Source of the DNA: Paracoccaceae bacterium
GTDB lineage: Bacteria > Pseudomonadota > Alphaproteobacteria > Rhodobacterales > Rhodobacteraceae
Direction of reading: 5' to 3'
DNA: 64,000 bases
Assembly (NCBI GenBank): GCA_029248915.1
Contig: JAQWIK010000109.1
Coordinates: 10,563 to 74,562, forward strand
Each line of letters starts with the position of its first letter. Positions within the stretch are counted from its first letter, which is position 1. Below the pieces are notes generated by a model. That model did not search any database. It saw only the letters and a list, made by a program, of their open reading frames with translations, and was not told the origin of the DNA. Positions 6,386 to 61,772 of the stretch are shown piece by piece. The position numbers and the translations under genes were made by a program.

Positions 6386-7012
6386 ATGATCAAAGGAAGT
6401 TTTAAAATGTTTTATAAACCCGATGAAGGTCATGGACTTAAAAATAATCCGTTCAATGCGATTGTGACACCCCGTCCAATTGGTTGGATCTCGACAAGAG
6501 ATAAAAAATTGATCGACAATATTGCACCATATTCTTTTTTTAACGCAGTGGCTTATGTACCACCTCAAGTTATGTTTGCTTCTACAGGGGATAAACCTGA
6601 TAGAGAAGGAACTAAAGATTCTGTAGCAAATATCAGGGAAAAAAAAGAGTTTTGTGTAAATATTGTATCTTACGAGATGCGGCATCAAATGAATGCAACT
6701 TCGAAATCTTTGCCAGCAGATATTGATGAATTTAAGCATGCCGAATTAAAAAAAATAGATTGTAATTTAGTAGATTGCCCACGGGTTTTAAATGCGCCCG
6801 CTTCACTTGAATGTAAATTGGTTGAAATTATAAAGTTGCCAGGAGCTGCAAATTTTGCTGTTTTCGGCGAAGTTGTCGGTGTTCACATGCGCGATGATTA
6901 CGTAGTTGAGGGAAAATTTGACGTAAGTAAATTTAATCCACTCACCCGGTTGGGTTATCGTGATTACAGTGTAGTTCGGGAGATATTTTCTATTTCACGG
7001 CCTGATGACTAA
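6386..7012 (+). CDS. Flavin reductase-like (FMN-binding split-barrel) protein
   Basis: 208 aa. N-terminal NPFNAIVTPRPIGWISTRD, IAPYSFFN and a C-terminal LTRLGYRDY block, typical of flavin reductase domain proteins. Confidence 0.7.
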   Translation: MIKGSFKMFYKPDEGHGLKNNPFNAIVTPRPIGWISTRDKKLIDNIAPYSFFNAVAYVPPQVMFASTGDKPDREGTKDSVANIREKKEFCVNIVSYEMRHQMNATSKSLPADIDEFKHAELKKIDCNLVDCPRVLNAPASLECKLVEIIKLPGAANFAVFGEVVGVHMRDDYVVEGKFDVSKFNPLTRLGYRDYSVVREIFSISRPDD

Positions 7013-9256: not shown

Positions 9257-10885
9257 TCAATGACCACTATCCAAAATACCAGTTTTTACCGAGTAATTCA
9301 CAGCAAGAGCATAATCTGGATCGTCATCACTATCGATGACTAGGTGACCCGCTTTAGTCAGCAAATTATGACAGTCCCGGCTAAGATGTCTGAGTTGAAT
9401 TCGTTTGTTCGCAAGTTCATATTTACCCGCAATTGCCTCAATTGCCTGTAGGGCCGATTGATCAACTACTCGGCTATCAGAAAATTCAATGATGACTTCT
9501 TCGGGATCATTTTGAACATCAAATAACTCTGAAAACCCATCAGCAGAGCCAAAAAATAAAGGGCCTTGAATGCGATAAATTTTGGCACCACTTCCTGAAA
9601 TTTCAGTGTGAGCGTGAATTCTCCTAGCATTATTCCAGGCATAAGCTAAAGCAGAAACAATTACCCCCACAACCACTGCAACTGCTAGGTCTGACAAAAC
9701 AGTGACAATTGTTACAAGTATAGTAACGAAAGCATCTGTAAGCGGAACTTTTCTAAGAATTTTAAAAGAATTCCATGCAAAAGTTCCTATAACAACCATG
9801 AACATAACTCCAACAAGCGCCGCTAAAGGTATCATTTCGATTATTGGCGATCCGACTAATATAAAAACCAGTAGGAAAAGTGCCGCAGCAATCCCTGCTA
9901 TCCGAGTTCTACCGCCCGACTTAACATTGATCATGGATTGACCAATCATAGCGCATCCACCCATTCCGCCAAAAAATCCGGTTGCAGTATTAGCGAGACC
10001 CTGAGCTATACATTCTTGGCTCGCACCTCCCCTTTTACCCGTCATTTCACCAACTAAATTAAGTGTAAGAAGACTCTCAATTAAGCCGATAGCCGCCAAA
10101 ATGATTGAATAGGGTAATATAATTTCGAATGTTTCCCAGCTTAGTGGAACGGAAGGGATATGAAACGGAGGTAAAGTTCCTTGAATTGAAGCCATATCAC
10201 CAACTCTAGGAACATCTAAACCAAAGAAAATAACAAGCCCTGCCACAACGCCGATACCAGCGAGAGGCGAAGGAATAATACGCGTAATGCGTGGCATGAT
10301 ATAGATTATAAACATTGTCAGAGCGACTAAAGCCAACATCATATATAAAGAGCCACCGCTGAGCCATTCGCCTCCTGAAGAACCATGCCCAGAAATTTCA
10401 GCTGTACCAGGTACTTTAAATTGCGTTAATTGGGCCAAGAAAATTACAATTGCCAGTCCATTGACGAAACCTAACATTACTGGATGAGGCACTAAGCGGA
10501 TAAACTTTCCCCACTGCATAAGACCAGCAAATATTTGCAAAACTCCCATTAAAACTACTGTGGCAAATAAATATTCCACTCCATGTTCTGCAACTAGTGC
10601 CACCATAACGACCGCTAAGGCTCCGGTGGCTCCAGAAATCATACCTGGACGACCTCCCAAGACTGCAGTTACCAACCCAACAAGAAACGCCGCATATAGT
10701 CCAACTAAAGGATGTACGCCAGCCACAAACGCAAACGCAACTGCTTCTGGAATCAGAGCTAGAGCAACAGTTAGTCCCGACAAGAGTTCCGTCCTGACCC
10801 GAGAAATGGTTAAACCTTCATCATTCATAAAATTCAAATCTGGTTTGTTCAAAGTCGCAAAAGTATTTAGAAGGGTTTGTTTCAT
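9257..10885 (-). CDS. SulP family anion (sulfate) permease with C-terminal STAS domain
   Basis: 542 aa. Polytopic membrane protein with SulP-like N-terminal blocks (LSGLTVALALIPEAVAFA) and a soluble about 120-aa STAS-like tail. Its stop abuts the argF stop. Confidence 0.85.
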   Translation of the reverse strand: MKQTLLNTFATLNKPDLNFMNDEGLTISRVRTELLSGLTVALALIPEAVAFAFVAGVHPLVGLYAAFLVGLVTAVLGGRPGMISGATGALAVVMVALVAEHGVEYLFATVVLMGVLQIFAGLMQWGKFIRLVPHPVMLGFVNGLAIVIFLAQLTQFKVPGTAEISGHGSSGGEWLSGGSLYMMLALVALTMFIIYIMPRITRIIPSPLAGIGVVAGLVIFFGLDVPRVGDMASIQGTLPPFHIPSVPLSWETFEIILPYSIILAAIGLIESLLTLNLVGEMTGKRGGASQECIAQGLANTATGFFGGMGGCAMIGQSMINVKSGGRTRIAGIAAALFLLVFILVGSPIIEMIPLAALVGVMFMVVIGTFAWNSFKILRKVPLTDAFVTILVTIVTVLSDLAVAVVVGVIVSALAYAWNNARRIHAHTEISGSGAKIYRIQGPLFFGSADGFSELFDVQNDPEEVIIEFSDSRVVDQSALQAIEAIAGKYELANKRIQLRHLSRDCHNLLTKAGHLVIDSDDDPDYALAVNYSVKTGILDSGH

Positions 10886-18977: not shown

Positions 18978-20696
18978 ATGCACATAATGTTGGAAAACCA
19001 CAAGCCAATTAAAGAACTGTATTTAAGCTCTAAATTATCAGATACAGCAAAGAAAGAAGCTGCAAACTATGTGAGCTGGGATTTAACTCCCCGCCAGATA
19101 TGTGACTTAGAACTTATTATGAATGGAGGTTTTTCTCCGCTTAATGGTTTTTTAGATGAAGAAGATTATAACAGTGTTTTAGACAATATGAGGCTCAAAG
19201 ATGGATCACTGTGGCCAATACCTATCACATTAGATGTCTCTGAAGAATTTTCTAGCAACTTAAAAATTGGGGAAAACGTTGCGCTGAGAAATCTTGAGGG
19301 TGTTATTCTAGCGACAATTCGCGTGGACGCTAAATGGTTACCAGATAAATTTAAAGAAGCTAAAAAGGTCTTCCAAACAACAGATGAAACACACCCAGGT
19401 GTAAATTTTCTTCTTAATAATAGTGGTAAAATTTATTTAGGCGGCGAGGTAACCGGACTGGAAAGGCCTCAGCACTATGATTTTAAAAGTCGAAGGCAAA
19501 CACCAAATGAGTTAAGAAAATATTTCCATAAAATGGGTTGGCAAAAAATTGTTGCTTTCCAAACTAGAAATCCATTGCACCGTGCTCACCAAGAATTAAC
19601 TCTAGCAGCAGCGAGGGACGTTGAAGCAAACTTATTAATTCATCCTGTTGTTGGTATGACAAAACCGGGAGACGTTGACCATTTCACTCGTGTGAGATGT
19701 TACGAAGCAATACTGGATAAGTACCCAACATTTTCAACAACATTATCACTAGTCAATCTTGCAATGAGAATGGCCGGGCCACGGGAGGCTGTTTGGCATG
19801 GCCTAATTCGCAAAAATCATGGCTGTACACACTTCATCATTGGAAGAGACCATGCAGGTCCTGGAAAAGATATTGATGGAAATGACTTTTACGCTCCTTA
19901 TGACGCACAAATCTTGTTCAAAACATATTCTAAAGAAATCGGAATTGAAATGGTAAGCTTTAAAGAGCTAGTATATGTGCCTGAGTATGGAAAATTTAAG
20001 CCCATTGATGAGTTAAATATTGATATTAAGACCTTGAGTATCTCGGGAACAGAACTCAGGCGGCGTTTGTATGAAGGGATAGATGTCCCAGACTGGTTTT
20101 CATTTCCTGAAGTATTAAAAGAGCTTCGCAAAACACTGCCTCCATTATCAAAGCGTGGCTTTACTATATTTTTTACAGGGCTTTCTGGATCAGGTAAATC
20201 TACAATAGCTAATGCTGTTTTAACTAAATTAATGGAAATGGGTGGAAGACCAGTTACCTTACTTGACGGCGATATAGTTCGCAAAAACTTATCTTCTGAA
20301 CTTGGGTTTTCTAAGGAGCACCGAGATCTAAATATACTTCGAATTGGTTATGTAGCATCAGAGATTACAAAAAACGGCGGTATAGCTATTTGCGCTCCGA
20401 TTGCCCCCTATTCAAAGACAAGGCTTTCCGTCAGAAATGACATAACTCAGTACGGAAGTTTTGTTGAAATTCATGTAAAAACCTCGTTAAAGATCTGCGA
20501 AAAAAGAGATCGAAAAGGATTATATAAGCTTGCTCGTCAGGGGAAAATAAAAGCTTTTACTGGGATCTCTGATCCATATGAAATTCCAGAACAGCCTGAA
20601 TTACGCTTAGATACAGAAAACGCTTCTGTTGACCAATGTGCTCAAAAAATCATATTAAAACTTCAACGTATGGGACTGATTAAATTTTCCGTTTAA
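18978..20696 (+). CDS. Bifunctional sulfate adenylyltransferase (Sat type) / adenylylsulfate kinase
   Basis: 572 aa. ATP-sulfurylase motifs QTRNPLHRAH and GRDHAG in the N-terminal about 390 aa. The C-terminal APS-kinase has P-loop GLSGSGKST. Confidence 0.9.
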   Translation: MHIMLENHKPIKELYLSSKLSDTAKKEAANYVSWDLTPRQICDLELIMNGGFSPLNGFLDEEDYNSVLDNMRLKDGSLWPIPITLDVSEEFSSNLKIGENVALRNLEGVILATIRVDAKWLPDKFKEAKKVFQTTDETHPGVNFLLNNSGKIYLGGEVTGLERPQHYDFKSRRQTPNELRKYFHKMGWQKIVAFQTRNPLHRAHQELTLAAARDVEANLLIHPVVGMTKPGDVDHFTRVRCYEAILDKYPTFSTTLSLVNLAMRMAGPREAVWHGLIRKNHGCTHFIIGRDHAGPGKDIDGNDFYAPYDAQILFKTYSKEIGIEMVSFKELVYVPEYGKFKPIDELNIDIKTLSISGTELRRRLYEGIDVPDWFSFPEVLKELRKTLPPLSKRGFTIFFTGLSGSGKSTIANAVLTKLMEMGGRPVTLLDGDIVRKNLSSELGFSKEHRDLNILRIGYVASEITKNGGIAICAPIAPYSKTRLSVRNDITQYGSFVEIHVKTSLKICEKRDRKGLYKLARQGKIKAFTGISDPYEIPEQPELRLDTENASVDQCAQKIILKLQRMGLIKFSV

Positions 20697-50610: not shown

Positions 50611-51696
50611 TCAGAAATTGACCACTTGTCCAGTTTCAGCAGAGGCCTGGGCTGCATGCCCCATCCTTACAGCCCAAATTCCGTCGTCCAGAGTGACCTC
50701 TGGAGGCATTTTCCCATCCACCACGAGCATAAATTTTTGATGTTGATAAAAGGTAGAACCATTATGATCTCCTGCCTCTAATATCTTCTTATCTACGGGC
50801 ACCTCCATCTCTTTTAAAATAGATTTATCTCTAGGACTAACCACTATTTTTGATATTGGAGGAGCACCAAGTTTTTTAGGCCAAAACCTAGCAGGTCCTG
50901 GGATAAAAGCCTCAACTTTGCCAGCCTCTCCAGTGATTGATATCTCTTCTTGATACTTTGAACCTTCTGCAAACATACAGAGTTCCAGCATTGCCTTCAT
51001 ATTATTTTCAAACTCAACAATGACATATCCGTGATCCCAAATATCTGGTACCGAACCAGAGTAATCTTCCTTCAGGTGGTTAACGGCCTGCCCTCCACTT
51101 GCCATTATCTTAATTGGGTTAGACTTTGTAATTAACCTCATCAAATCAAAAAAATGACAGCATTTTTCAACAAATGTCCCTCCACTATTTTTATTAAATC
51201 TGTTCCAATTATCAACTTTAGGAAGAAAGGGAAATCTATGTTCACGGATGGAAAGCATTTTGATACCACCAGTTACATTTTTTTGCTGCCTGATTAGTTC
51301 TGCTATGGGTGGCATATATCGATATTCCATAGCCACCCAAACCGGTGCTGTGTATTGAACTAAAAAGTTTTGTACTCTCTCCAAGTGATTGATGTCAGTA
51401 AACAAAGGTTTTTCCACTAAAATTGGCTTATGAGGTACACTAGCCAATCGTTCCAATTGTTCCATGTGAAGATGATTTGGCGAAACTATTAACCAGCAAT
51501 CAATGTTTTCATCACTTAAAATTTCATCCAGAGAATCATAAAACTTGGACTCTGGAGCAAGTGCTTTTGCCATCTTCTGCATATTTAAATTAGGTTCATA
51601 AACAGCATAAGTTAAAGCATCATCTATTAAATTTATATTGCGAAGATGCTCTTGCCCCATCATTCCACAACCAATAATTCCATACCTTTTTTTCAT
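50611..51696 (-). CDS. Gfo/Idh/MocA family NAD(P)-dependent oxidoreductase
   Basis: I chose ATG 51696 (MKKRYGIIGCGMMGQEH), preceded by AGGAG that overlaps the gntR stop. Rossmann GxGxxG, VEKP motif and the GGTFVEKCCHFFD block are present. Confidence 0.8.
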   Translation of the reverse strand: MKKRYGIIGCGMMGQEHLRNINLIDDALTYAVYEPNLNMQKMAKALAPESKFYDSLDEILSDENIDCWLIVSPNHLHMEQLERLASVPHKPILVEKPLFTDINHLERVQNFLVQYTAPVWVAMEYRYMPPIAELIRQQKNVTGGIKMLSIREHRFPFLPKVDNWNRFNKNSGGTFVEKCCHFFDLMRLITKSNPIKIMASGGQAVNHLKEDYSGSVPDIWDHGYVIVEFENNMKAMLELCMFAEGSKYQEEISITGEAGKVEAFIPGPARFWPKKLGAPPISKIVVSPRDKSILKEMEVPVDKKILEAGDHNGSTFYQHQKFMLVVDGKMPPEVTLDDGIWAVRMGHAAQASAETGQVVNF

Positions 51697-51703
51697 AATG
51701 CTC

Positions 51704-52405
51704 CTAACTGATACGCGTCGTATAGCGTGCAATATTTGTATCGATCCAACTTCGTGAAAACTCTACAGGAGCTCCAACCTGATCGTATGCTAAACGTTCT
51801 ATGCAAACTGTTTCCTGACAATTCATTACTTTAAATTCCTTAGGAGACCAAACAGGCACTGGAAGTAAGGTAGCGCTGTCTTTAGCTGAAGTAATACGCA
51901 AATTAAGAATATCTTTATAAAAGAGATAAATAGACTGTGAAATATTATTAAATTTAAGGCCATCAGTTTTAATCGAGTCTAAGTAAATTTCTTCCAACAC
52001 GCAGGGTAGATTATCTAAGAAACGCAATCGCCTAATCCTCAGGCATTCATCTGATTCTCCAAAAAATGGTGAGGATTTTGGTTTTTTAACTAAATTGATG
52101 TCTAAATTTTTAGCTGAAGGCAAACCTCCGCCATCGATAAGCTCAACTCTAAAAAACGAGTAAATGGAATTAAATTTTGTATTAAATTTTATGTAATTAC
52201 CAGAACCGTGCCTTCGAAATAAAGCACCTTTTTTTTCAAGGTCTTTTAATGATTTGCGCAGTGTTCCAACAGAAATGTTGAGAGATTTGGCCAATTGTCT
52301 TTCAGGCAGAAGACGTTCACCATCAGATAACCGACCTGCTATTATTTCTCTCATAAGCATTTCACTAATTTGGATATAAACTGGTAAAGAAGTAGCTTCC
52401 GACAT
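51704..52405 (-). CDS. GntR family transcriptional regulator, HutC subfamily (UTRA effector domain)
   Basis: I chose ATG 52405 (MSEATSLPVYIQISEMLMREI...). Winged helix LPERQLAKSLNISVGTLRKSLKDLEKKGALFRRHGSGNYI plus an about 150-aa UTRA-like C-terminal domain. Confidence 0.85.
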   Translation of the reverse strand: MSEATSLPVYIQISEMLMREIIAGRLSDGERLLPERQLAKSLNISVGTLRKSLKDLEKKGALFRRHGSGNYIKFNTKFNSIYSFFRVELIDGGGLPSAKNLDINLVKKPKSSPFFGESDECLRIRRLRFLDNLPCVLEEIYLDSIKTDGLKFNNISQSIYLFYKDILNLRITSAKDSATLLPVPVWSPKEFKVMNCQETVCIERLAYDQVGAPVEFSRSWIDTNIARYTTRIS

Positions 52406-52494
52406 GCTTCCAAAATGTAAGTAATTTAAAAATTGATACACTATTGATTTACATATGTTGTAATGTTACGCAAGACTTAACATTAGGGGGGGCT

Positions 52495-53649
52495 ATGACC
52501 GTCGTACCAATAACATCTTATGAATTGAAGGCTGCAGAGATTTCTTGGTTCTCAGCTTTATGCTCTGACGATTATCAATTCTTGGGAGTTCCAGATGGAA
52601 ACCTTCGAAGTTCATGGGACCATTGTAGTCAAATAGTGAAAGAAGCGGAAAACTATGGATTTCGAAATATCCTTTGCCCGTCTTCTTATCAAGTTGGACA
52701 AGACACATTGAGCTTTGTGGCTGGTTGCGCTCCAATAACGGAAAAAATTAATATGCTCGCTGCAGTAAGGTGCGGTGAAATGCAACCCATTATGCTCGCC
52801 CGAACTATCGCCACTTTAGATCACATGCTAAAAGGTCGACTTACTATTAATATCATTAGTTCCGATTTTCCTGGGGAAACCGCTGAGAGTGGATATCGAT
52901 ATAAACGTTCACGGGAAGTAGTTGAAATTTTAAAACAAGCATGGACACAAGATGAGATCAACTATGAAGGTGAGACATACAAATTTTCAGGTCTTACAAC
53001 TGATCCTTCAAAGCCTTTTCAAATTGGAGGACCGCTACTTTATTTCGGTGGCTATTCTCCACCAGCTCTTGAACTATGTGGACAACATTGTGATGTATAT
53101 CTCATGTGGCCTGAACCAAAAGAACAAATAATTAGCCGAATGAAATCTGTAAATGAAGTAGCTGAAAAATATAATAGAACCCTCGATTATGGTTTGAGAG
53201 TTCATATGATTGTTAGAGATTCCGAAATAGAGGCCAAAGAATATGCTGAGTACATAGTGTCAAAGCTAGAGGATGACTTTGGGAAGAAAATTAGAGAGCG
53301 GGCGCAGGACAGCTCTTCCTTGGGAGTATCGCACCAAACAAAAAATAGAAAAATGGCGGATGAATTCGGTTACGTCGAACCTAATCTTTGGACAGGAGTG
53401 GGTAGAGCAAGATCTGGATGTGGCGCTGCTATTGTTGGATCAACTGATCAAGTGATGAGTGAATTGGAACAATATCAGAAATTAGGAATTCGTTCTTTTA
53501 TCCTATCTGGGTACCCCCACCTTGAAGAATGTAAACATTTTGGCTCAAAGGTCTTGCCAAATATAAAAACTTGTTCTTTACCACATGAGTACGGACGAGT
53601 TCCCAACAATACACCTTCAACTCCACTTGGGATAGGGGAGCGTCACTAA
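52495..53649 (+). CDS. SsuD-family (alkanesulfonate-monooxygenase-like) FMNH2-dependent LLM monooxygenase
   Basis: I chose ATG 52495, preceded by a G-rich SD. Blocks LLYFGGYS, DVYLMWPEP, LRVHMIVRDSE, EPNLWTGVG, GAAIVGSTDQV and FILSGYPHLEE line up with E. coli SsuD as I recall it (PLYFGGSS, DLYLTWGEP, IRLHVIVRET, SPNLWAGVG, GTALVGDGPTV, FVLSGYPHLEE). Confidence 0.85.
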   Translation: MTVVPITSYELKAAEISWFSALCSDDYQFLGVPDGNLRSSWDHCSQIVKEAENYGFRNILCPSSYQVGQDTLSFVAGCAPITEKINMLAAVRCGEMQPIMLARTIATLDHMLKGRLTINIISSDFPGETAESGYRYKRSREVVEILKQAWTQDEINYEGETYKFSGLTTDPSKPFQIGGPLLYFGGYSPPALELCGQHCDVYLMWPEPKEQIISRMKSVNEVAEKYNRTLDYGLRVHMIVRDSEIEAKEYAEYIVSKLEDDFGKKIRERAQDSSSLGVSHQTKNRKMADEFGYVEPNLWTGVGRARSGCGAAIVGSTDQVMSELEQYQKLGIRSFILSGYPHLEECKHFGSKVLPNIKTCSLPHEYGRVPNNTPSTPLGIGERH

Positions 53650-54539
53650 TGGAAAGAATTAAAATAAGTTCAACGCTTACCATGTCCCAGTTGGTTTACG
53701 GTATGTGGCGATTAGGTGATGATGAAGATACATCGCCGGACCATGTACGAAATAAAATCGAAAGTTGTTTGGACCAAGGAATAACCTCCTTTGATCAGGC
53801 CGATATTTATGGCGGCTATGAGGCTGAAGAAATTCTAGGAAATGCACTTAAAGGTTCAAGCCTACGTCAAAAAATGGAAATTGTTACCAAGTGCGATATC
53901 GTCGCTCCAGTAGGTAGGTATAAAAATGCTCGCGTTAAGTATTATGATACGTCAAGAGACCATATTTTAAATTCAGTAGAGCAATCTTTAAAGCTAATGG
54001 GTATCGACTACATTGACTTGCTTTTACTTCATAGACCTGATCCATTGATGGATCACTTTGAAACCGGTGCTGCACTTGATGAAATAATTGCTTCTGGGAA
54101 AGTAAGAAATGTGGGCGTTTCAAATTTCAAACCGTGGGATTGGAATTTATTGCAAACTGGGATGAAAAATAAACTTGTCACCAATCAAATTGAGTTAAGC
54201 GTTCTTGCTCACGACGGCTTCACAAATGGAGACGTTGCATTTCACCAAAGTAAAAATACTCCAATTATGGCGTGGTCTCCCTTAGGGGGAGGAGACATAT
54301 TTTTAAAATCTAACGAAAAGATTTTGAATCATCTGGATAGTATAGGAAAAACATTTGGCTTCGAGCCAGGGACGGTCGCCGTTGCCTGGTTGCTCGCACA
54401 CCCTGCCAATATTTTACCTGTGCTAGGAACAAACTCATTGGCCCGAATAGAGACAATTTCAAAAGCCTTAGAGGTTAAATTGGATAGACAAACTTGGTTT
54501 GAAATTTATACAGCTGCGCTTGGACGTGAAGTTGCTTAG
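53649..54539 (+). CDS. Aldo-keto reductase, YdhF-like
   Basis: 296 aa. DQADIYGGYEAEE, DLLLLHRPDPLMD and VGVSNF blocks are very like E. coli YdhF from memory. TAATG overlap with the monooxygenase gene. Confidence 0.85.
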   Translation: MERIKISSTLTMSQLVYGMWRLGDDEDTSPDHVRNKIESCLDQGITSFDQADIYGGYEAEEILGNALKGSSLRQKMEIVTKCDIVAPVGRYKNARVKYYDTSRDHILNSVEQSLKLMGIDYIDLLLLHRPDPLMDHFETGAALDEIIASGKVRNVGVSNFKPWDWNLLQTGMKNKLVTNQIELSVLAHDGFTNGDVAFHQSKNTPIMAWSPLGGGDIFLKSNEKILNHLDSIGKTFGFEPGTVAVAWLLAHPANILPVLGTNSLARIETISKALEVKLDRQTWFEIYTAALGREVA

Positions 54540-54560
54540 TGACAGCGGAATTAGATTTTA

Positions 54561-55022
54561 ATGAAAAATCAGGATGAGTTCAGATTTGCTTTAGGGAAGT
54601 ACACAACAGGGGTCACAATTGTTACCTGTAACGGTAAAAATGGCCCGATAGGAATTACAGCAAATAGCTTTTCAAGCCTGTCTTTATCACCCCCATTAGT
54701 TCTATGGTCACCGGCAAAGGCTTCCAAAAGACATGATACTTTTTTAAAAGCTGAAAAGTTTACAATTCATATTGCTGGTGAACATCAAATTGAGCTATGC
54801 AAAAGCTTTTCAAAGAGCGCTGATGGTGGAAGTGAAATGAATTGGAATTTCAATGATGAAGGTGAAGCCTTTATCAAAAATTGTTCCGCACGGTTTGAAT
54901 GCACAAAATATAGTCACTTTGACGGAGGCGACCATTCAATTATCGTGGGAGAGGTGAAAAAGTTTGAAACTACGGACAATAAACCGTTAGTATATTGGGG
55001 AGGCAATTACCAAAAACTTTAA
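54561..55022 (+). CDS. Flavin reductase (HpaC/RutF-type, NAD(P)H:flavin oxidoreductase)
   Basis: 153 aa. FRFALGKYTTGVTIVT, ITANSFSSLSLSPPLVLWS and DHSIIVGEV blocks are typical of the short flavin reductases that partner two-component monooxygenases. Confidence 0.8.
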   Translation: MKNQDEFRFALGKYTTGVTIVTCNGKNGPIGITANSFSSLSLSPPLVLWSPAKASKRHDTFLKAEKFTIHIAGEHQIELCKSFSKSADGGSEMNWNFNDEGEAFIKNCSARFECTKYSHFDGGDHSIIVGEVKKFETTDNKPLVYWGGNYQKL

Positions 55023-55124
55023 TATTTGACGAAATTCAGAAATATGAAGATAACAAAATTTTAAATAATTTTTTGTTTTTATATCACCAAACTTTTCTGT
55101 TTGACCTATTTTAGATTTTAGAGT

Positions 55125-55159
55125 TTGGTAGCGCTACCAATGGTGCAAATTTTAGCACC
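55125..55159. promoter_or_regulatory. Candidate operator: perfect 16-bp palindrome plus adjacent imperfect palindrome
   Basis: TTGGTAGCGCTACCAA (55125-55140) is a perfect palindrome. One base later comes GGTGC-aaatttta-GCACC (55142-55159). Both lie about 80-110 nt upstream of the binding-protein ATG and just upstream of TATATT (55160-55165). The TGGT...ACCA half-sites resemble HutC/GntR-type operators. Confidence 0.45.
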
Positions 55160-55237
55160 TATATTTTATAAATTAGGTCATCTAGTGACTTAGTTTTTTA
55201 GTACAACTAAAATGTTTCTACTCTCGGGAGGAAAAGA

Positions 55238-56581
55238 ATGAAACGTAATATTAAATCTTTAAGTATCGCAGCTGCTCTGTCCTTAAGTTTTGGGACCATG
55301 GGGATCGCGGGTTCTCACGATGTTTGCAATACGCCATCAAAGTTAGGTGACATGGGAAGTTTTCCTGGCGAAGTCATAACTATGCAAGGATCAATGTTAG
55401 GCACTGACCAAGAAATGTTAGAAAATACCATTAGCTGCTTTGAAAAGGCAACTGGTGCAACAGTTCAATATTCTGGGTCATGTGATTTTGCAGCCCTCGT
55501 CGTTGCAGACATGCGTTCGAATAACCCACCTAACATCGCAATTTTTCCACAACCGGGTCTTGCAGCTGACATGGCCGCGGAAGGTCACCTTATTCCAATT
55601 GGTGATGATGCAGCCTCTTGGATGGCTGATAATTACGGAGCCGGCTCTTCATGGGTCGATCTTGGAACTTATGCCGATGCCAGCGGCAATAAGAATTTCT
55701 ATGGATTTGCATACAAAATGGATCTGAAATCTTTAGTTTGGTATTCACCTGAGCAATTTGAAGATAATGGCTATGAAATTCCTTCTACAATGGAAGAACT
55801 AATTGAGCTTTCTGATCAAATGGTTGCGGATGGCAACACTCCTTGGTGCATAGGTGTGGAGTCTGGAAATGCGACTGGATGGACCGCAACAGACTGGATG
55901 GAAGACATCATGCTACGCACAACTTCAGCGGAAAACTATGATCGGTGGGTTTCAAATGACCTTGCCTTCAATAGTCCTGAAGTAATCAACGCAATGAACC
56001 TTTATGGTCAATTTTCTAGGAATGACGAGTACGTCGCCGGTGGAGCATCATCAGTAGCTACCACGTCTTTCGGTGATGCGCCGAAAGGTTTGTTTACTTC
56101 ACCACCAAGGTGTATGATGCATCGTCAAGCCTCTTTTATCACAGGTTTTTTTCCTGATAAAGGAGAAGAAGTTGCACGCGGTGAGGCAGATGCTTTCTAC
56201 TTCCCTCCATTCGCATCGGGAAATTTAGGAAATCCAGTTCTTGGCGCAGGGACCCTGTACACAATGGCTAAAGACTCGCCTGCAACTCGTGCATTCTTTA
56301 AATATTTGCAAGAAGCCTCAGCTCATGAAGCTTGGATGCAGCAAGGTGTATTCCTAACTGCGCACAAAGGCGCTGACTTATCTGCTTATGCAACACCACT
56401 TCTTAGAAAGCAGGGAGAAATCCTAGCAAATGCAACAACTTTCCGTTTTGACGCTTCTGACTTAATGCCTGGTGCAATTGGAGCAGGTGCTTTTTGGAGC
56501 GAAATGACAGCATTTGCAAACGGACAGGATGCAAAAAGAACAGCTGACAATATTCAAGCAGCATGGGACGCTATTAAGTAA
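55238..56581 (+). CDS. aglE: Sugar ABC transporter substrate-binding protein (AglE-like, alpha-glucoside type)
   Basis: 447 aa. Signal peptide, family-1 extracellular solute-binding protein, GGAGG SD. First gene of an SBP-permease-permease-GH13-ATPase array, identical in order to Sinorhizobium aglEFGAK. The symbol is given by gene order only. Confidence 0.7.
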   Translation: MKRNIKSLSIAAALSLSFGTMGIAGSHDVCNTPSKLGDMGSFPGEVITMQGSMLGTDQEMLENTISCFEKATGATVQYSGSCDFAALVVADMRSNNPPNIAIFPQPGLAADMAAEGHLIPIGDDAASWMADNYGAGSSWVDLGTYADASGNKNFYGFAYKMDLKSLVWYSPEQFEDNGYEIPSTMEELIELSDQMVADGNTPWCIGVESGNATGWTATDWMEDIMLRTTSAENYDRWVSNDLAFNSPEVINAMNLYGQFSRNDEYVAGGASSVATTSFGDAPKGLFTSPPRCMMHRQASFITGFFPDKGEEVARGEADAFYFPPFASGNLGNPVLGAGTLYTMAKDSPATRAFFKYLQEASAHEAWMQQGVFLTAHKGADLSAYATPLLRKQGEILANATTFRFDASDLMPGAIGAGAFWSEMTAFANGQDAKRTADNIQAAWDAIK

Positions 56582-56603
56582 TAATAGCTACCAAACAAGC
56601 TTT

Positions 56604-56631
56604 AAGAGCACAGGGTAAAACCTGTGCTCTT
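56604..56631 (+). terminator. Intra-operon hairpin after the binding-protein gene (attenuator or mRNA-stabilising element)
   Basis: Perfect 11-bp stem AAGAGCACAGG / CCTGTGCTCTT with a 6-nt loop. It is followed by ATTTAATTA, which is a weak U-tract, so it is probably only a partial terminator. Confidence 0.45.
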
Positions 56632-56660
56632 ATTTAATTATCACTAGGTAAACCAAATAC

Positions 56661-57914
56661 ATGCGGTCAGTACAATCGATAATATTTAGCAATAGCTTAG
56701 CTATCGTATTAACGATTGTCTGCGTGCTACCAATTACTGCTGTTTTCATTTTTTCATTAACTGCGCCAATAGATGATGCTTTCGCCAATTTTGGTCTCTG
56801 GCTCCATGATAAATACAATTGGTCTGTAGCTATTTTTGTTACTGAACTTAGATTTGCAAAAGTAGGATTTGCACTACGATCTGTGATAATAGCTTTATTT
56901 ATTTCATTCCTTTATTATTGGATCGCAAATTGGCTCAACTTTGGATTAGCAAATTTCCGATCAAGCAATTCAATCGGGAAAAGGTCAGTAATTGCAGAAG
57001 CTATTCAGCCCTGGATATTTGTAGGGCCAGCATTGATCTTACTCTTACTATTTTTGCTAATTCCTGCACTCACTACATTGAAAATTTCTTTCACAGAACC
57101 TGGTGGAACAGCTTCAGTTAGCAACTATTCATTTCTGTGGGACCAAAATGCTTTAGGTTATATGCAATTTAGGTTGGCTATGAGAAATAGTTTAATGTGG
57201 TTAATTTTAGTACCATCGCTTTGTATAGTATTTGGATTACTTATTGCCGTTTTAGCCGACTCAGTAAGGTGGGGGGTCGTCGCAAAAACATTTATTTTCG
57301 TACCCTTGGCCATCTCGTTTGTTGGAGCAGCCGTGATCTGGCGAAATATCTTGGCAGGTGGAGGTATCGAACCACAAGAAGCAATAAACGGAGTTACACC
57401 TTCCTACCAAATAGGACTACTAAAGGCACTATTAGGACATACACCCGAGTATAATGAACCACTTTATAATCTCAAATTTTGGGGCAACTTTTACCTAATG
57501 TGGATTATGGTATGGATCAAAACCGGTTTTGCGATGGTTATTTTTTCTGCTGCGTTGAGAGGGGTACCGCAAGAGACGGTCGAGGCTGCTATAATTGATG
57601 GAGCTAACCCTCGGCAGCTATTCTTTAGAATAAAGTTACCACAAATTTTTTCAACTGTGGTGGTTGTATGGACATACCTTGTAACAGACGTTTTAAAGGT
57701 ATTCGATATTCCTTACGCATTATCCGCCAATGATGACGATAAGCTTTTGCTTGCTACTATGATGGAAGCTGCAATGAATACCTGGTCTATTGGTGGTAGT
57801 AATGTGGATAATTTATTCGCGGCTATCGCGATCATGCTCATGTTAACAGTTATTCCCCACATGATTTTCCTTGGTTGGCGTATACGCCGTGAACAAAAGC
57901 AATTAGAACATTAA
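56661..57914 (+). CDS. aglF: Sugar ABC transporter permease (MalF/AglF-like) with about 110-aa N-terminal membrane extension
   Basis: 417 aa. EAA-loop region (EAAIIDGANPRQLFFRIKLP). There is no in-frame ATG/GTG/TTG between 56661 and the canonical first helix, so the extension appears to be genuinely coded. Confidence 0.75.
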   Translation: MRSVQSIIFSNSLAIVLTIVCVLPITAVFIFSLTAPIDDAFANFGLWLHDKYNWSVAIFVTELRFAKVGFALRSVIIALFISFLYYWIANWLNFGLANFRSSNSIGKRSVIAEAIQPWIFVGPALILLLLFLLIPALTTLKISFTEPGGTASVSNYSFLWDQNALGYMQFRLAMRNSLMWLILVPSLCIVFGLLIAVLADSVRWGVVAKTFIFVPLAISFVGAAVIWRNILAGGGIEPQEAINGVTPSYQIGLLKALLGHTPEYNEPLYNLKFWGNFYLMWIMVWIKTGFAMVIFSAALRGVPQETVEAAIIDGANPRQLFFRIKLPQIFSTVVVVWTYLVTDVLKVFDIPYALSANDDDKLLLATMMEAAMNTWSIGGSNVDNLFAAIAIMLMLTVIPHMIFLGWRIRREQKQLEH

Positions 57915-57928
57915 GAGGTTGTTAAAAT

Positions 57929-59155
57929 ATGTTTAATCGTTCTTTTGCTCACATTATCCTGGCATTAATTTTGGTAATATGGGTGGTTCCCTTTATCGCT
58001 CTTATAACAACATCGTTCAGATCAGAAGTTGCATCTAAAACTTCAGGTTTTTGGACAGCATTCACGCCAACTGAACTTGGGCATCGCTTTAGTACACATG
58101 ACAAAGGGCAACAATTCAAAGTCATCGAAATGCGCGGTAATATTTTTGAACGGATAAATAAGAGCGAAGAATGGTTTACGATATCTGGGGGAATAAACTC
58201 AATTATGTTTAAGGGTAGAGTGCCTGACCCCGATAAACCAGGTAAAACCAAGTTAATTCGAAAACTAGTGCCCGCAGGCGAAGTCATGGATGTTCGCGGT
58301 GGGGAATTTATTTTCCAAGCTAACGGTGATTTTATTTGGTCTTTTCCAGAAGCAACAGCACCAAAGCCAAAAAACCTTGATGTTTTTATTAATCAAGATC
58401 CAGTATTTGGAGCGGAGGCCTATTTTGAGGTCTTGTTAGATAACAAAGACGTTCCAAACGCTCTGATATCTTCCTTTATCGTGGTGGTGCCCGCAACAAT
58501 AATTCCTATTACAGTTGCTGCGTTTGCTGCATATGCTTTTTCATGGATGCAGTTTCCAGGCCGAGACTGGTTATTTATACTTGTAGTTTCACTGATGGTG
58601 GTGCCAACCCAGTTAGCTTTTTTACCAATTTTACAGGGCTTCAACGGGCTTGCAAGCTGGGCTACTGCACTTAAACAATGGACGACGGATTGCGAATTGA
58701 CAAACACATGCCAATTCCCAACTAAGTCATTCGCAGGTTTGTGGCTTACTCATACAGGCTTTGGCCTTCCTCTCGCTATCTTTCTTTTGCGCAATTACAT
58801 CGTAGGATTGCCGCGGGAATTACTTGAGAGCGCCAAAATCGACGGTGCTAATCACATGCAAATTTTTGTGAAAGTAGTTATACCACTTTCTGTACCAGCA
58901 CTCGCTTCATTCAGTATTTTCCAGTTTCTCTGGATCTGGAATGATCTATTGGTAGCTATGTTTGTTGGACCTACTGCAAATGATGATGTAGTTTTTCCAA
59001 TTTTACTAGAAAGACAATTAGGAACTTTTGGAGACCAACTTCATCTTCTGAATGCTTCCGCAGTGATTTCCATGGTAGTACCAGTGATAGTATTTCTTGC
59101 TATGCAAAAATATTTTATTAAGGGATTGCTCGCCGGATCCGTCAAGGGAGGCTGA
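57929..59155 (+). CDS. aglG: Sugar ABC transporter permease (MalG/AglG-like) with large periplasmic loop
   Basis: 408 aa. EAA loop ESAKIDGANHMQIFVKVVIP. An about 150-aa hydrophilic segment sits between the first and second helices. Confidence 0.75.
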   Translation: MFNRSFAHIILALILVIWVVPFIALITTSFRSEVASKTSGFWTAFTPTELGHRFSTHDKGQQFKVIEMRGNIFERINKSEEWFTISGGINSIMFKGRVPDPDKPGKTKLIRKLVPAGEVMDVRGGEFIFQANGDFIWSFPEATAPKPKNLDVFINQDPVFGAEAYFEVLLDNKDVPNALISSFIVVVPATIIPITVAAFAAYAFSWMQFPGRDWLFILVVSLMVVPTQLAFLPILQGFNGLASWATALKQWTTDCELTNTCQFPTKSFAGLWLTHTGFGLPLAIFLLRNYIVGLPRELLESAKIDGANHMQIFVKVVIPLSVPALASFSIFQFLWIWNDLLVAMFVGPTANDDVVFPILLERQLGTFGDQLHLLNASAVISMVVPVIVFLAMQKYFIKGLLAGSVKGG

Positions 59156-59158
59156 AAA

Positions 59159-60727
59159 ATGTCTACTTTGAAATGGTGGGAAAACGCCGTAATCTACCAA
59201 ATTTATCCCAGGTCATTTCAGGACTCAAATAGCGATGGCATTGGTGATCTCAACGGCATCGCCTCAAGATTGAATTATATTGCAGATCTTGGTGTTGATG
59301 CTATCTGGGTTAGCCCCTTTTTCATGTCTCCTCAATATGACTTCGGCTATGACGTATCTAACTATTGCGATATTAACCCTGAGTATGGGACCCTTACTGA
59401 TTTTGATAATCTAATTCAGAAAACTCATAAGCTTGGTTTACGCCTTATGATAGATATTGTCCCCGCACATTGTTCTTCCTTGCACCCTTGGTTTGAAGAA
59501 AGCCGCCAGTCTAGACATAACTCAAAAGCTGACTGGTTTCATTGGGTAGATCCAAAACCAGACGGATTACCACCTAATAATTGGTTATCGTTTTTTGGAG
59601 GCTTAGCTTGGTCTTGGGAACCACGGCGTCAACAATACTATTTACATAATTTTTTACCAGAGCAGCCAAATTTAAATCATGCGAACCCTCAGGTGCGTGA
59701 CGAGTTAAATAAAATAGCAAGATTTTGGTTTGACCGTGGCGTGGATGGTTTCAGATTAGACGCAGTCCACACAATCAACGGAGATACTGCACCTTACAGA
59801 GATAATTTAGCAGATCCAAATTTTGTTCTCGGGCCCTTACCCCAAGACAAACAACCTTCTTTTAGACAATTGCATGACGTGGCTCAACTTAATCAGCCAG
59901 TGATCCAGAGCTTTAGTTCAGCTTATAGAAAAATAGCTGACGAGTATGAAGGTGATCGCTTTCTTATGGGAGAGGTGGATGGAGACGAAGGTAATGCTAT
60001 GAACGTCAGTAAGACGTTTTCAGAACCTGGTCGGCTCCACGCAACTTATAATTTTGATCTGCTTGAATGGTCAGGATTGACAGTCTCTGAACTTAAAGAA
60101 GCTATTTCAAATGCAATAAAGGTTTTCAACGGATCAGGTCGACTATGCTTTGCCTTTTCTAACCACGACGTTCCAAGATCAGCAACTCGCCAACTGGAGC
60201 CACTTGAAATTTCACTGGATAAACAAGATAATTTGCAGCTGTTACTTCTTCAGCTGGAAACATCACTTATTGGCTCAACCTGTATCTATCAGGGTGAAGA
60301 ATTAGGTCTTTGTGACGTTACTGATATTCCTGTAACAAAAATGAAAGACCCCTGGGGTATAAACTTTCATCCTGAATTCTTAGGAAGAGATACATGCAGA
60401 ACACCTATGGTCTGGAATAAGAAACAGTCTATGGGTGGATTTACATCAGGAAATCAGTCCTGGTTACCAATAGCTGAACCTCATTTAGAAAAGGCCGCAC
60501 TGGAAATGGCAATAAATACTAAATCTGTATACAGTAAGTTTTCAAAATTCTTAAAATGGCGGAAAAAGCAGCCAGCGATGATGCATGCTAATATCATGTC
60601 AGAAGTGTCTGGTGGCCCTAAAGAAATAATTTTTGATAGAATGAGTGACTCTCAAAAATTGAGATGTAAATTTGATTTTGAAATGGTTAAAGCCACCTTT
60701 GAAGAGGTAAAGTATGGCACAAGTTGA
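59159..60727 (+). CDS. aglA: GH13 alpha-glucosidase (AglA / oligo-1,6-glucosidase-like)
   Basis: 522 aa. WWENAVIYQIYPRSFQDSNSDGIGDL start. Conserved regions DIVPAH (I), GFRLDAVH (II, nucleophile Asp), GEVDG (III, acid/base Glu) and FSNHDVPR (IV) are all present. Confidence 0.88.
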   Translation: MSTLKWWENAVIYQIYPRSFQDSNSDGIGDLNGIASRLNYIADLGVDAIWVSPFFMSPQYDFGYDVSNYCDINPEYGTLTDFDNLIQKTHKLGLRLMIDIVPAHCSSLHPWFEESRQSRHNSKADWFHWVDPKPDGLPPNNWLSFFGGLAWSWEPRRQQYYLHNFLPEQPNLNHANPQVRDELNKIARFWFDRGVDGFRLDAVHTINGDTAPYRDNLADPNFVLGPLPQDKQPSFRQLHDVAQLNQPVIQSFSSAYRKIADEYEGDRFLMGEVDGDEGNAMNVSKTFSEPGRLHATYNFDLLEWSGLTVSELKEAISNAIKVFNGSGRLCFAFSNHDVPRSATRQLEPLEISLDKQDNLQLLLLQLETSLIGSTCIYQGEELGLCDVTDIPVTKMKDPWGINFHPEFLGRDTCRTPMVWNKKQSMGGFTSGNQSWLPIAEPHLEKAALEMAINTKSVYSKFSKFLKWRKKQPAMMHANIMSEVSGGPKEIIFDRMSDSQKLRCKFDFEMVKATFEEVKYGTS

Positions 60728-61772
60728 ACTTAAAAATGTTGCGAAGTCTTTTGGAAAAACAGAAGTTATAAGAGACGTACACTTATCAATAGAAAAGGGG
60801 GAATTCGTTGTCTTCGTTGGCCCATCTGGTTGTGGGAAATCAACGCTACTGAGGCTAATTGCTGGTTTGGAAAACCTAACAGAAGGTGAAATTATAATAG
60901 CAGACAAACCAGTTATGGATTTACCTCCATCTGAACGCGGAATTGCTATGGTTTTTCAGTCATACGCTCTTTATCCACATATGTCTGTTTTTCAAAATAT
61001 GGCTTTTTCTTTAAGTCTCCAAAGCTTATCAAAAGATGATATCAAGAAACGAGTAGAGGCGGCAGCTAAAATTCTTCAAATGGAGCATCTTCTGGACCGT
61101 AGGCCAGCTGCGTTGTCTGGTGGACAGCGGCAACGTGTTGCTATTGGACGAGCGATCGTTAGAAATCCTGATGTATTTTTATTTGATGAACCGCTCTCAA
61201 ATTTAGATGCTGCACTACGACATGATACGCGCGTTGAGATCGCCAAATTACATAAGCAATTAGATGCTACAACTATATACGTAACCCATGATCAGGTTGA
61301 AGCCATGACCTTAGCTGACAAAATAGTTGTCCTAAAAGATGGAGAAATTATGCAAGTGGGATCGCCAATGGAATTATTCAATACGCCTGCAAATGAGTTT
61401 GTTGCTGGATTTCTTGGTTCACCAAAAATGAACTTTTTTGATGGGAATTTATCAAAAGTTACTAAAAGTGGCTCAACAGGGTCTTTTGCTGGAGAAGGTT
61501 TTACGGCAAATAGTATTCGGCTTAATTCACCAGAAAAGCGAGCTGAAGAAAAAATACTGTTGGGTATTCGCCCACAGCACTTACAAATCGATGTAAAAGG
61601 TAACTTGTCAGGTAAAGTGACATTAGTCGAAAAACTTGGAACGGAAACTGTTGTTGAATTGATTACTGAAAATGGAACCCCCTTCAGATATGCGGCGGCA
61701 GAAACTCCCAATATAACAACTGGAGACAAGCTAAAATTTAAATTCGAAAGTGATAAAGCTCACTTATTTTAA
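60714..61772 (+). CDS. aglK: Sugar ABC transporter ATP-binding protein (MalK/UgpC/AglK type)
   Basis: 352 aa. Walker A GPSGCGKST, signature LSGGQRQR, Walker B FLFDEPLS and a C-terminal TOBE-like domain. Overlaps the GH13 gene by 14 nt. Confidence 0.9.
   Translation: MAQVELKNVAKSFGKTEVIRDVHLSIEKGEFVVFVGPSGCGKSTLLRLIAGLENLTEGEIIIADKPVMDLPPSERGIAMVFQSYALYPHMSVFQNMAFSLSLQSLSKDDIKKRVEAAAKILQMEHLLDRRPAALSGGQRQRVAIGRAIVRNPDVFLFDEPLSNLDAALRHDTRVEIAKLHKQLDATTIYVTHDQVEAMTLADKIVVLKDGEIMQVGSPMELFNTPANEFVAGFLGSPKMNFFDGNLSKVTKSGSTGSFAGEGFTANSIRLNSPEKRAEEKILLGIRPQHLQIDVKGNLSGKVTLVEKLGTETVVELITENGTPFRYAAAETPNITTGDKLKFKFESDKAHLF

Follow-up and report, generated by a model that had tools for sequence, protein, structure and literature searches.

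The aglEFGAK genes of Sinorhizobium meliloti form an operon for the uptake and hydrolysis of alpha-glucosides, with the LacI-family regulator AglR, and the sulfoquinovose monooxygenase (sulfo-SMO) cluster of the Roseobacter clade was reportedly described from Roseobacter denitrificans OCh 114 and D. shibae DFL 12 by Liu et al. 2023, as cited by later papers. Relatives of both gene sets lie side by side in a 64-kb stretch of contig JAQWIK010000109.1 from a Paracoccaceae bacterium (the window, along the full length of which all coordinates are counted; G+C content ~40%), where genes for the oxidative desulfonation of sulfoquinovose (SQ), a sulfosugar of plants and algae, are followed by an agl-type operon encoding an ATP-binding cassette (ABC) importer and a glycoside hydrolase of family GH13 (Table 1).

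The smo cluster of Agrobacterium tumefaciens (Atu3277-3285; PMC8795539) performs the same chemistry with orthologous SmoC and SmoB (74% and 62.5% identical to the window proteins) plus a flavin reductase, but has the GH31 sulfoquinovosidase SmoI and SmoF, which binds sulfoquinovosyl glycerol (SQGro), with SmoE, SmoG and SmoH, where the window has a GH188 sulfoquinovosidase and a substrate-binding protein (SBP) without detectable similarity to SmoF. The Roseobacter clusters of R. denitrificans OCh 114 and D. shibae DFL 12 (PMC10755693, PMC12780224) share with the window the sqgA-gntR pair divergent from smoC-smoB-smoA, the absence of GH31 and a conserved intergenic block; in R. denitrificans smoA is followed by genes of a tripartite ATP-independent periplasmic (TRAP) transporter, DctQMP, often with a CCP_MauG gene next in loci of this kind, whereas the window has the agl-type ABC/GH13 operon instead. 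Both of these carriers of the same core are known to grow on SQ or SQGro, with sulfite or sulfate as a released product (PMC12780224; 10.1101/2023.03.31.535182). A cluster in a metagenome-assembled genome (MAG) of Marinovum sp. (NZGN01000053.1) comprises homologues of SmoA, SmoB and SmoC, an ABC cassette with a binding protein and a GH13 enzyme, but no GH31 (Li et al. 2023, bioRxiv 10.1101/2023.03.31.535182); by this description its architecture is that of the window, and its GH13 enzyme, compared by sequence, is 82% identical, but the organism, a close relative, is a different one, the nearest genomes to that of the window being the single amplified genomes (SAGs) AG-390-A18 and AG-359-N23. 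The likeness to the agl operon of S. meliloti is one of gene order (binding protein, two permeases, GH13 enzyme and MalK-type ATPase); a LacI-type palindrome is found in the window too, and a LacI gene adjoins the operon divergently in relatives, but none does so in the window.

The first-pass annotation of the window knew of no characterised system with this combination. It has been published (10.1101/2023.03.31.535182; PMC10755693; PMC12780224), and the locus is an instance of an already known system: its pathway dates from 2022, its Roseobacter form and the assay of the GH13 enzyme from 2023, and its GH188 sulfoquinovosidase from papers of 2023-2025. In the interpretation favoured here, which is rather likely to be correct, two modules are adjacent: a sulfo-SMO module of the Roseobacter clade (50611-55022) and an independent operon of the aglEFGAK type (55125-61772). 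Orthology, residues, gene order and distribution are results of this analysis, enzyme activities are drawn from the literature on orthologues, and the pairing of regulators with operators and the substrates of the importer are inferred.

Oxidative desulfonation genes

All ten genes called in the first-pass annotation are open reading frames (ORFs) at the positions listed in Table 1 and belong to the Pfam families that it assigned. Judged by orthology, the locus is a sulfo-SMO locus. The monooxygenase, described initially as SsuD-like, is by far closest to SmoC, scoring 691 bits to the A. tumefaciens protein (7OLF) and 675 bits to RoSmoC of Rhizobium oryzae (7OH2; both structures from Sharma et al. 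2022, PMC8795539), versus 189 bits to MsuD, 181 to SsuD and 93 to SfnG; against the SsuD equivalog model of NCBI it scores 243 bits, below the cut-off of 518. All five residues of the SmoC sulfonate site (W206, R236, H238, Y341 and H343) are conserved. The aldo-keto reductase is likewise an orthologue of A. tumefaciens SmoB (403 bits to 7BBY/7BC0, with YdhF as runner-up at 196 bits), and its gene overlaps that of the monooxygenase in a TAATG junction, as had been noted, consistent with translational coupling of smoC and smoB. By a published criterion, genomes that carry genes for SmoB as well as SmoC are scored as positive for sulfo-SMO, and the earlier assignment of the locus to this pathway is upheld by the orthology of the two proteins. 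The outcome that the first-pass annotation had named as refuting it, a monooxygenase within the usual SsuD clades and an aldo-keto reductase not belonging with SmoB, is not what the comparisons show. SmoA is tentatively assigned by its Flavin_Reduct domain and its position after smoB, conserved in most loci, its identity to the corresponding proteins outside loci L001 and L002 of the survey described below being 39-54%.

Two metagenome contigs (L086, 5739-7789; L087, 5575-7625) carry sqgA-gntR/smoC-smoB without smoA, an agl-type operon beginning 212-376 bp past smoB, and must therefore depend on an unlinked flavin reductase. A second protein with a Flavin_Reduct domain (208 aa) is encoded in the window at 6386-7012 (+), distant from the smo genes.

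It is very improbable that the substrate of the monooxygenase module is some sulfonate different from SQ, for instance another 6-sulfo sugar or an alkanesulfonate in sulfur scavenging. The sulfonate-site residues of SmoC are common to MsuD and SsuD, and no structure of a SmoC-SQ complex exists, but the window SmoC, at 74% identity to its A. tumefaciens counterpart, lies above the 60% cut-off for smoC of Ma et al. 2025 (PMC12780224), its gene sits with smoB and with the gene for an SQ-specific GH188 enzyme, and roseobacters with the identical core cluster grow on SQ or SQGro.

The sulfoquinovosidase of the cluster

As the first-pass annotation observed, the cluster is without a GH31 sulfoquinovosidase: no GH31 domain occurs in the 30 ORFs scanned at 672-46385 (every ORF of at least 300 aa there included), and the remainder of the window at 46-64 kb outside the cluster holds no ORF longer than 380 aa, far below the size of a GH31 sulfoquinovosidase. 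The Gfo/Idh/MocA-fold protein encoded next to the regulator, which had been listed as an extra NAD-type oxidoreductase, is, on the evidence of homology and active-site residues, the GH188 sulfoquinovosidase SqgA of the cluster. In phmmer searches it scores 504 bits to RdSqgA of R. denitrificans (8ZN9) and 343 and 337 bits to the SqgA structures 8QC2 and 8QC3, whereas no inositol-type dehydrogenase scores above 69 bits. Its identity to RdSqgA, 60%, passes the cut-off of at least 54% for prokaryotic SqgA of Ma et al. 2025 (PMC12780224), and that to 8QC2 is 47%. The sulfonate-binding triad (Arg166, the Leu170 backbone and Lys172, in ArSqgA numbering) is conserved in the alignment, as are all of the catalytic and sugar-binding residues Lys107, Tyr136, Glu189, His193 and His321 in the same numbering; the Rossmann GxGxxG motif is kept as GIIGCGMMG, and the aligned motifs include EKP, MEYRY, EHRFPFLPKV, VEKCCH and GDHNG. 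The paper that reported 8QC2 and 8QC3 founded family GH188, in which catalysis is NAD+-dependent with transient oxidation at C3, and found GH188 genes to be nearly universal in Roseobacter sulfo-SMO clusters, which are without GH31 (Kaur et al. 2023, PMC10755693). RdSqgA cleaves SQGro, on which R. denitrificans grows (Ma et al. 2025, PMC12780224).

The first-pass annotation had instead given the cleavage of a sulfonated glycoside to the GH13 enzyme, which on that reading would be a non-classical sulfoquinovosidase, the Gfo/Idh/MocA protein being an accessory oxidoreductase. What speaks for this is genomic context, a GH13 gene inside a cluster that lacks GH31, and the same hypothesis was raised for MsGH13 of the Marinovum cluster, which was then cloned and assayed (Li et al. 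2023, 10.1101/2023.03.31.535182). MsGH13 proved to have no activity on PNP-sulfoquinovoside and to be a broad GH13_23 alpha-glucosidase that cleaves six neutral alpha-glucosides: maltose, nigerose, trehalose, sucrose, isomaltose and kojibiose (Li et al. 2023, 10.1101/2023.03.31.535182). None of the GH13 homologues matched MsGH13 by source name, and its sequence was taken from the supplement of Li et al. 2023. The window enzyme and MsGH13 are of equal length and align gaplessly over 521 aa with the identity given above, and all eight of the residues D61, H104, R199, D201, E272, H336, D337 and R410 are found in the window enzyme at the MsGH13 numbers, an active site of the neutral alpha-glucosidase type; the closest structures are 6AAV and 3WY1 of the Halomonas alpha-glucosidase HaG (438 bits to 3WY1). 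Because the published assay of this orthologue, from a cluster of the same type, was negative, the assignment of sulfoquinovosidase activity to the GH13 enzyme is contradicted; the complete GH188 sulfonate-binding triad of the Gfo/Idh/MocA protein also counts against it, and it is scarcely credible. The GH13 enzyme would have no part in sulfosugar cleavage. The report on MsGH13 predates the discovery of GH188 and left the question of the sulfoquinovosidase open (Li et al. 2023, 10.1101/2023.03.31.535182).

Conservation of the core cluster and of its regulatory region

The survey of gene neighbourhoods drew 80 SmoC loci from species representatives of GTDB, and almost all of them belong to the Roseobacter group or Roseibium. 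The core order <sqgA <gntR smoC> smoB> smoA> is found in 78 of the 80 loci, one of the two exceptions being cut by the end of a contig, and the core is thus no chance juxtaposition. Within the GTDB representative set, two Rhodobacteraceae SAGs, AG-390-A18 and AG-359-N23, come closest, with 93-94% identity in SmoC and a gene order identical to that of the window over the whole region. TRAP genes in the order DctQ-DctM-DctP directly follow smoA in 54 loci, and the DctP proteins of these smo-linked transporters are 72-92% conserved among loci; RdDctP (RD1_2315) of R. denitrificans was tested by surface plasmon resonance (Ma et al. 2025, PMC12780224). An agl-type ABC/GH13 operon occurs beside the smo genes in about ten loci. 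It lies directly 3' of smoA only in the window, L001, L002 and HIMB11 (L004); a LacI gene intervenes between smoA and the operon in L003; and in L030, L043, L047, L050 and L079 a more distant operon of this type is present within 10 kb, with SBPs 51-55% identical and with LacI and/or GH1 genes alongside.

Several other genes accompany the core in these loci. After the TRAP genes, about 45 of loci L006-L080 have a gene for a di-haem cytochrome c peroxidase/MauG protein (CCP_MauG, PF03150; ~15.6-18 kb in locus coordinates); in the Roseibium loci a gene for a membrane protein of PF03601 (YeiH-type) follows. The window contains neither gene, and both proteins may perhaps function in sulfite handling. 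Nioella loci (L005, L036, L058, L063 and L070; ~12.5-20 kb) have a third accessory set after smoA, which begins with an AXE1/S9-like esterase gene directly after smoA, possibly for a sulfolipid deacylase, and also includes a FadR-type GntR gene, a UxuA-like gene, three genes of the Gfo/Idh/MocA family and a gene for another kind of ABC sugar-binding protein. In a Yoonia locus (L066), the other ABC system of the Nioella type lies directly after smoA.

All 80 loci have, in the interval separating gntR from smoC, a sequence block of the form ATTGATACACYATTGATYTAC, a gap of ~12 nt and GCTACGCAAG, once per locus and always immediately 5' of smoC, irrespective of G+C content (40% to >60%), and never 5' of an SBP gene. 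In the window it has a single copy at 52432-52452, where 0.01 would be expected. This block is probably the promoter and candidate GntR operator of the pathway, binding by GntR being deduced from its position; no mention of it was found in the published accounts of the pathway cited here. The conserved block overlaps the 5' end of the longest gntR ORF, for which reason the shorter start at ATG 52405 is favoured as the likely one. The gntR stop codon TAG lies within TAGGAG, 7 bases 5' of the sqgA start, in line with the overlap of the sqgA SD and the gntR stop noted in the first-pass annotation, gntR adjoins sqgA in 79 of the 80 loci, and the two genes are predicted to be co-transcribed.

The agl-type operon

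The ABC/GH13 genes look like an ordinary, independent alpha-glucoside uptake operon, with a substrate range predicted from its relatives. The first-pass annotation compared the importer with that of A. tumefaciens, but the SBP has no match even at E<=10 to SmoF (7OFY/7NBZ), in which the sulfonate is bound by the cluster T220-G166-S43-H2O(H13-Q46); its best match in the PDB is a xylo-oligosaccharide binding protein at 29 bits. Close homologues of the SBP are very abundant in marine metagenomes and, where named (JGI, NCBI), are called alpha-glucoside transport system substrate-binding proteins. Genomic context was read for seven of them on long contigs: five (L081/L082, L083, L084, L085 and L088) belong to operons of the form SBP-permease-permease-(GH13)-ATPase that have no smo genes near and are often flanked by a GH1 gene or a divergently oriented LacI gene, and two (L086 and L087) directly follow smoB in the clusters without smoA. 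Between the window SBP and those encoded in agl operons without smo neighbours, identity is 76-82%; in the SBP tree, proteins from the two contexts interleave, the HIMB11 SBP (85% identical to that of the window) being 91% identical to that of L085 and the L087 SBP 92% identical to that of L088, and the alignment contains no column that discriminates smo-adjacent from non-adjacent SBPs. Whatever the ligand is, it would appear from these comparisons to be identical in the two contexts.

Locus L083, on a MAG contig assigned to Candidatus Puniceispirillaceae (SAR116; JBMHBX010000024.1, 6611-14517), has an SBP-permease-permease-GH13-ATPase-GH1 operon whose SBP shows 90% identity to the SBPs of L087 and L088, two contigs of roseobacter type, and 76% to that of the window. 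Either the module has spread horizontally among Alphaproteobacteria of the pelagic zone, as this suggests, or the contig was binned wrongly.

Regulatory signals likewise set the operon apart. The smoA-SBP spacer (55023-55237) measures 215 bp and contains a perfect 16-bp palindrome, TTGGTAGCGCTACCAA, both as reported in the first-pass annotation; the palindrome is conserved in both L001 and L002. Where a LacI gene lies divergent to an orthologous operon, TCAAAGCGCTTTGA or TTGAAAGCGCTTTCAA stands at the equivalent spot 5' of the SBP gene, and all three sequences share the same TTGnnAGCGCTnnCAA design. The palindrome at 55125-55140 thus probably serves the agl-type operon as an operator of the LacI family, and the corresponding repressor is presumed to be encoded outside the window, because no LacI gene is present inside. 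No operator is shared by the gntR-smoC region and the smoA-SBP spacer: the palindrome bears no likeness to the gntR-smoC block and has no relative in that region. A hairpin (TAAGAGCACAGG...CCTGTGCTCTTA) that separates the SBP gene from the first of the permease genes is the strongest terminator-like site of the region and may be an intra-operon attenuator, which would set the ratio of SBP to permease. The first-pass annotation had joined the importer to the sulfosugar pathway; judged from its regulatory signals and its distribution, the operon seems to be an independent one for alpha-glucosides.

Uptake of sulfoquinovosyl compounds

According to a 2026 review, little is known of how aquatic bacteria take up SQ. 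SQGro is an alpha-glycoside of a 6-substituted glucose, and the agl-type ABC system could import it, possibly along with neutral alpha-glucosides, replacing TRAP DctPQM, the GH13 enzyme serving neutral co-substrates only. Such a role is on the whole unlikely, yet a number of observations weigh in its favour and against the independence of the two modules. Directly 3' of smoA, at the site that the TRAP genes occupy in 54 loci, the window has the agl operon, reading in the same direction. The loci with an agl operon directly after smoA or smoB (the window, L001, L002, L004, L086 and L087) are without an SQ-type TRAP within 10 kb, and L047, L079 and L035, in which an agl operon with its own LacI gene is nearby, retain TRAP, so that the two distributions are complementary. 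The cluster in the window includes no other transporter, and genes for an SQ-type TRAP, LacI, GH1 or a YeiH-type exporter are absent from the rest of the 64 kb. In a tree of SqgA+SmoC+SmoB (distance-based neighbour-joining, no support values), loci with agl and smo genes adjacent, in several arrangements, occupy at least four separate positions, which exceeds what random gene order would give. A terminator-like scan found no strong terminator between smoA and the SBP gene, so that co-expression by read-through is possible. The ABC cassette was drawn as part of the Marinovum cluster by Li et al. 2023.

On the opposite side stand the lack of detectable similarity of the SBP to SmoF, the occurrence in smo-less operons of SBPs 76-92% identical to smo-adjacent ones with no residue column separating the two, and the LacI-type operator of the operon in place of the gntR-smoC block. 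Adjacency could also be the product of genome streamlining alone, by a series of deletions running from L079 through L003 and HIMB11/the window to L086/L087. The TRAP-less pattern of the direct-agl loci fits a functional replacement, and it also fits a stepwise deletion from an ancestral smoCBA-TRAP-GH1/LacI-agl neighbourhood. A single origin of the agl-smo adjacency was considered as well and rejected, the adjacent loci occupying at least four places of the tree.

Proposed functions of the two modules

With the two modules taken as independent, SQ-glycerol or free SQ would enter the cell, and the ABC system would not be a dedicated SQ-glycerol importer. SqgA, with tightly bound NAD+, would oxidise SQGro transiently at C3, eliminate the aglycone and release SQ; SmoA would reduce FMN and supply FMNH2 to SmoC, which with O2 would break the C-S bond, yielding sulfite and 6-oxo-glucose; and SmoB would reduce 6-oxo-glucose to glucose. 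The HutC-type GntR protein is predicted to repress the divergent promoters, probably through the block at 52432-52474, until an SQ-derived inducer is present. The agl operon would import neutral alpha-glucosides (sucrose, trehalose, maltose etc.) for hydrolysis to glucose by the GH13_23 enzyme, under its own LacI-type operator and a repressor encoded elsewhere. Both modules would have phototroph-derived alpha-glycosides as input and glucose as end product.

Gene layout and other features of the window

The features of the locus are collected in Table 1. The ATPase belongs to the UgpC subfamily of NCBIfam (456 bits versus a cut-off of 432). Scans of the window with Rfam and for tRNA genes gave no matches. 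Genes for a SulP/STAS sulfate permease (9257-10885, -) and a fused ATP-sulfurylase/APS-kinase (18978-20696, +) are found 30-40 kb upstream of the cluster, and the organism therefore has genes for assimilatory sulfate activation besides a pathway that would release sulfite.

Table 1. Features of the sulfo-SMO module and the adjoining agl-type operon (window coordinates)
Feature	Position	Strand	Remarks
sqgA, GH188 NAD+-dependent sulfoquinovosidase (by homology), Gfo/Idh/MocA fold	50611..51696	-	likely start ATG 51696; longer TTG ORF to 51732
GntR/HutC-type regulator gene	51704..52405	-	Pfam GntR + UTRA; likely start ATG 52405; longest ORF from GTG 52441
probable gntR-smoC promoter/operator block	52432..52474	+	ATTGATACACTATTGATTTAC at 52432-52452 plus GTTACGCAAG at 52465-52474
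smoC, FMNH2-dependent sulfoquinovose monooxygenase (by orthology)	52495..53649	+	Pfam luciferase-like monooxygenase
smoB, 6-oxo-glucose reductase (by orthology)	53649..54539	+	Pfam aldo-keto reductase
smoA, predicted NAD(P)H-flavin reductase	54561..55022	+	Pfam Flavin_Reduct
perfect palindrome TTGGTAGCGCTACCAA, probable LacI-family operator	55125..55140	.	single exact copy in window
aglE-like periplasmic sugar-binding protein (CUT1 ABC)	55238..56581	+	Pfam SBP_bac_1
hairpin, 12-bp stem + T-rich tail	56603..56632	+	terminator-like scan
aglF-like ABC permease	56661..57914	+	Pfam BPD_transp_1; synteny in all agl-type operons examined
aglG-like ABC permease	57929..59155	+	Pfam BPD_transp_1; synteny in all agl-type operons examined
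aglA, GH13_23 alpha-glucosidase, MsGH13 orthologue	59159..60727	+	82% identity to MsGH13
aglK/MalK/UgpC-type ABC ATPase	60714..61772	+	Pfam ABC_tran + OB_MalK + TOBE_2

Implications

The value of this comparison is mainly corrective: the sulfoquinovosidase that seemed to be missing is the oxidoreductase encoded beside the regulator, and the idea of a sulfoquinovosidase in GH13 had already been tested and had failed. A search of the literature for sulfoquinovose in HIMB11 or aglE in roseobacters turned up nothing useful. The agl-type operon is a testable candidate for the transporter of SQ or SQ-glycerol in pelagic lineages without TRAP in the cluster. Tentatively, and against the balance of the present evidence, the streamlined pelagic roseobacters (the low-G+C lineage of the window, HIMB11 and the Tara contigs L086 and L087) might use an abundant, horizontally shared alpha-glucoside importer that doubles as an importer of SQ-glycerol, in place of the TRAP transporter of coastal roseobacters. 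If true, this would settle, for those pelagic lineages, by what route bacteria of the ocean acquire sulfoquinovosyl compounds.

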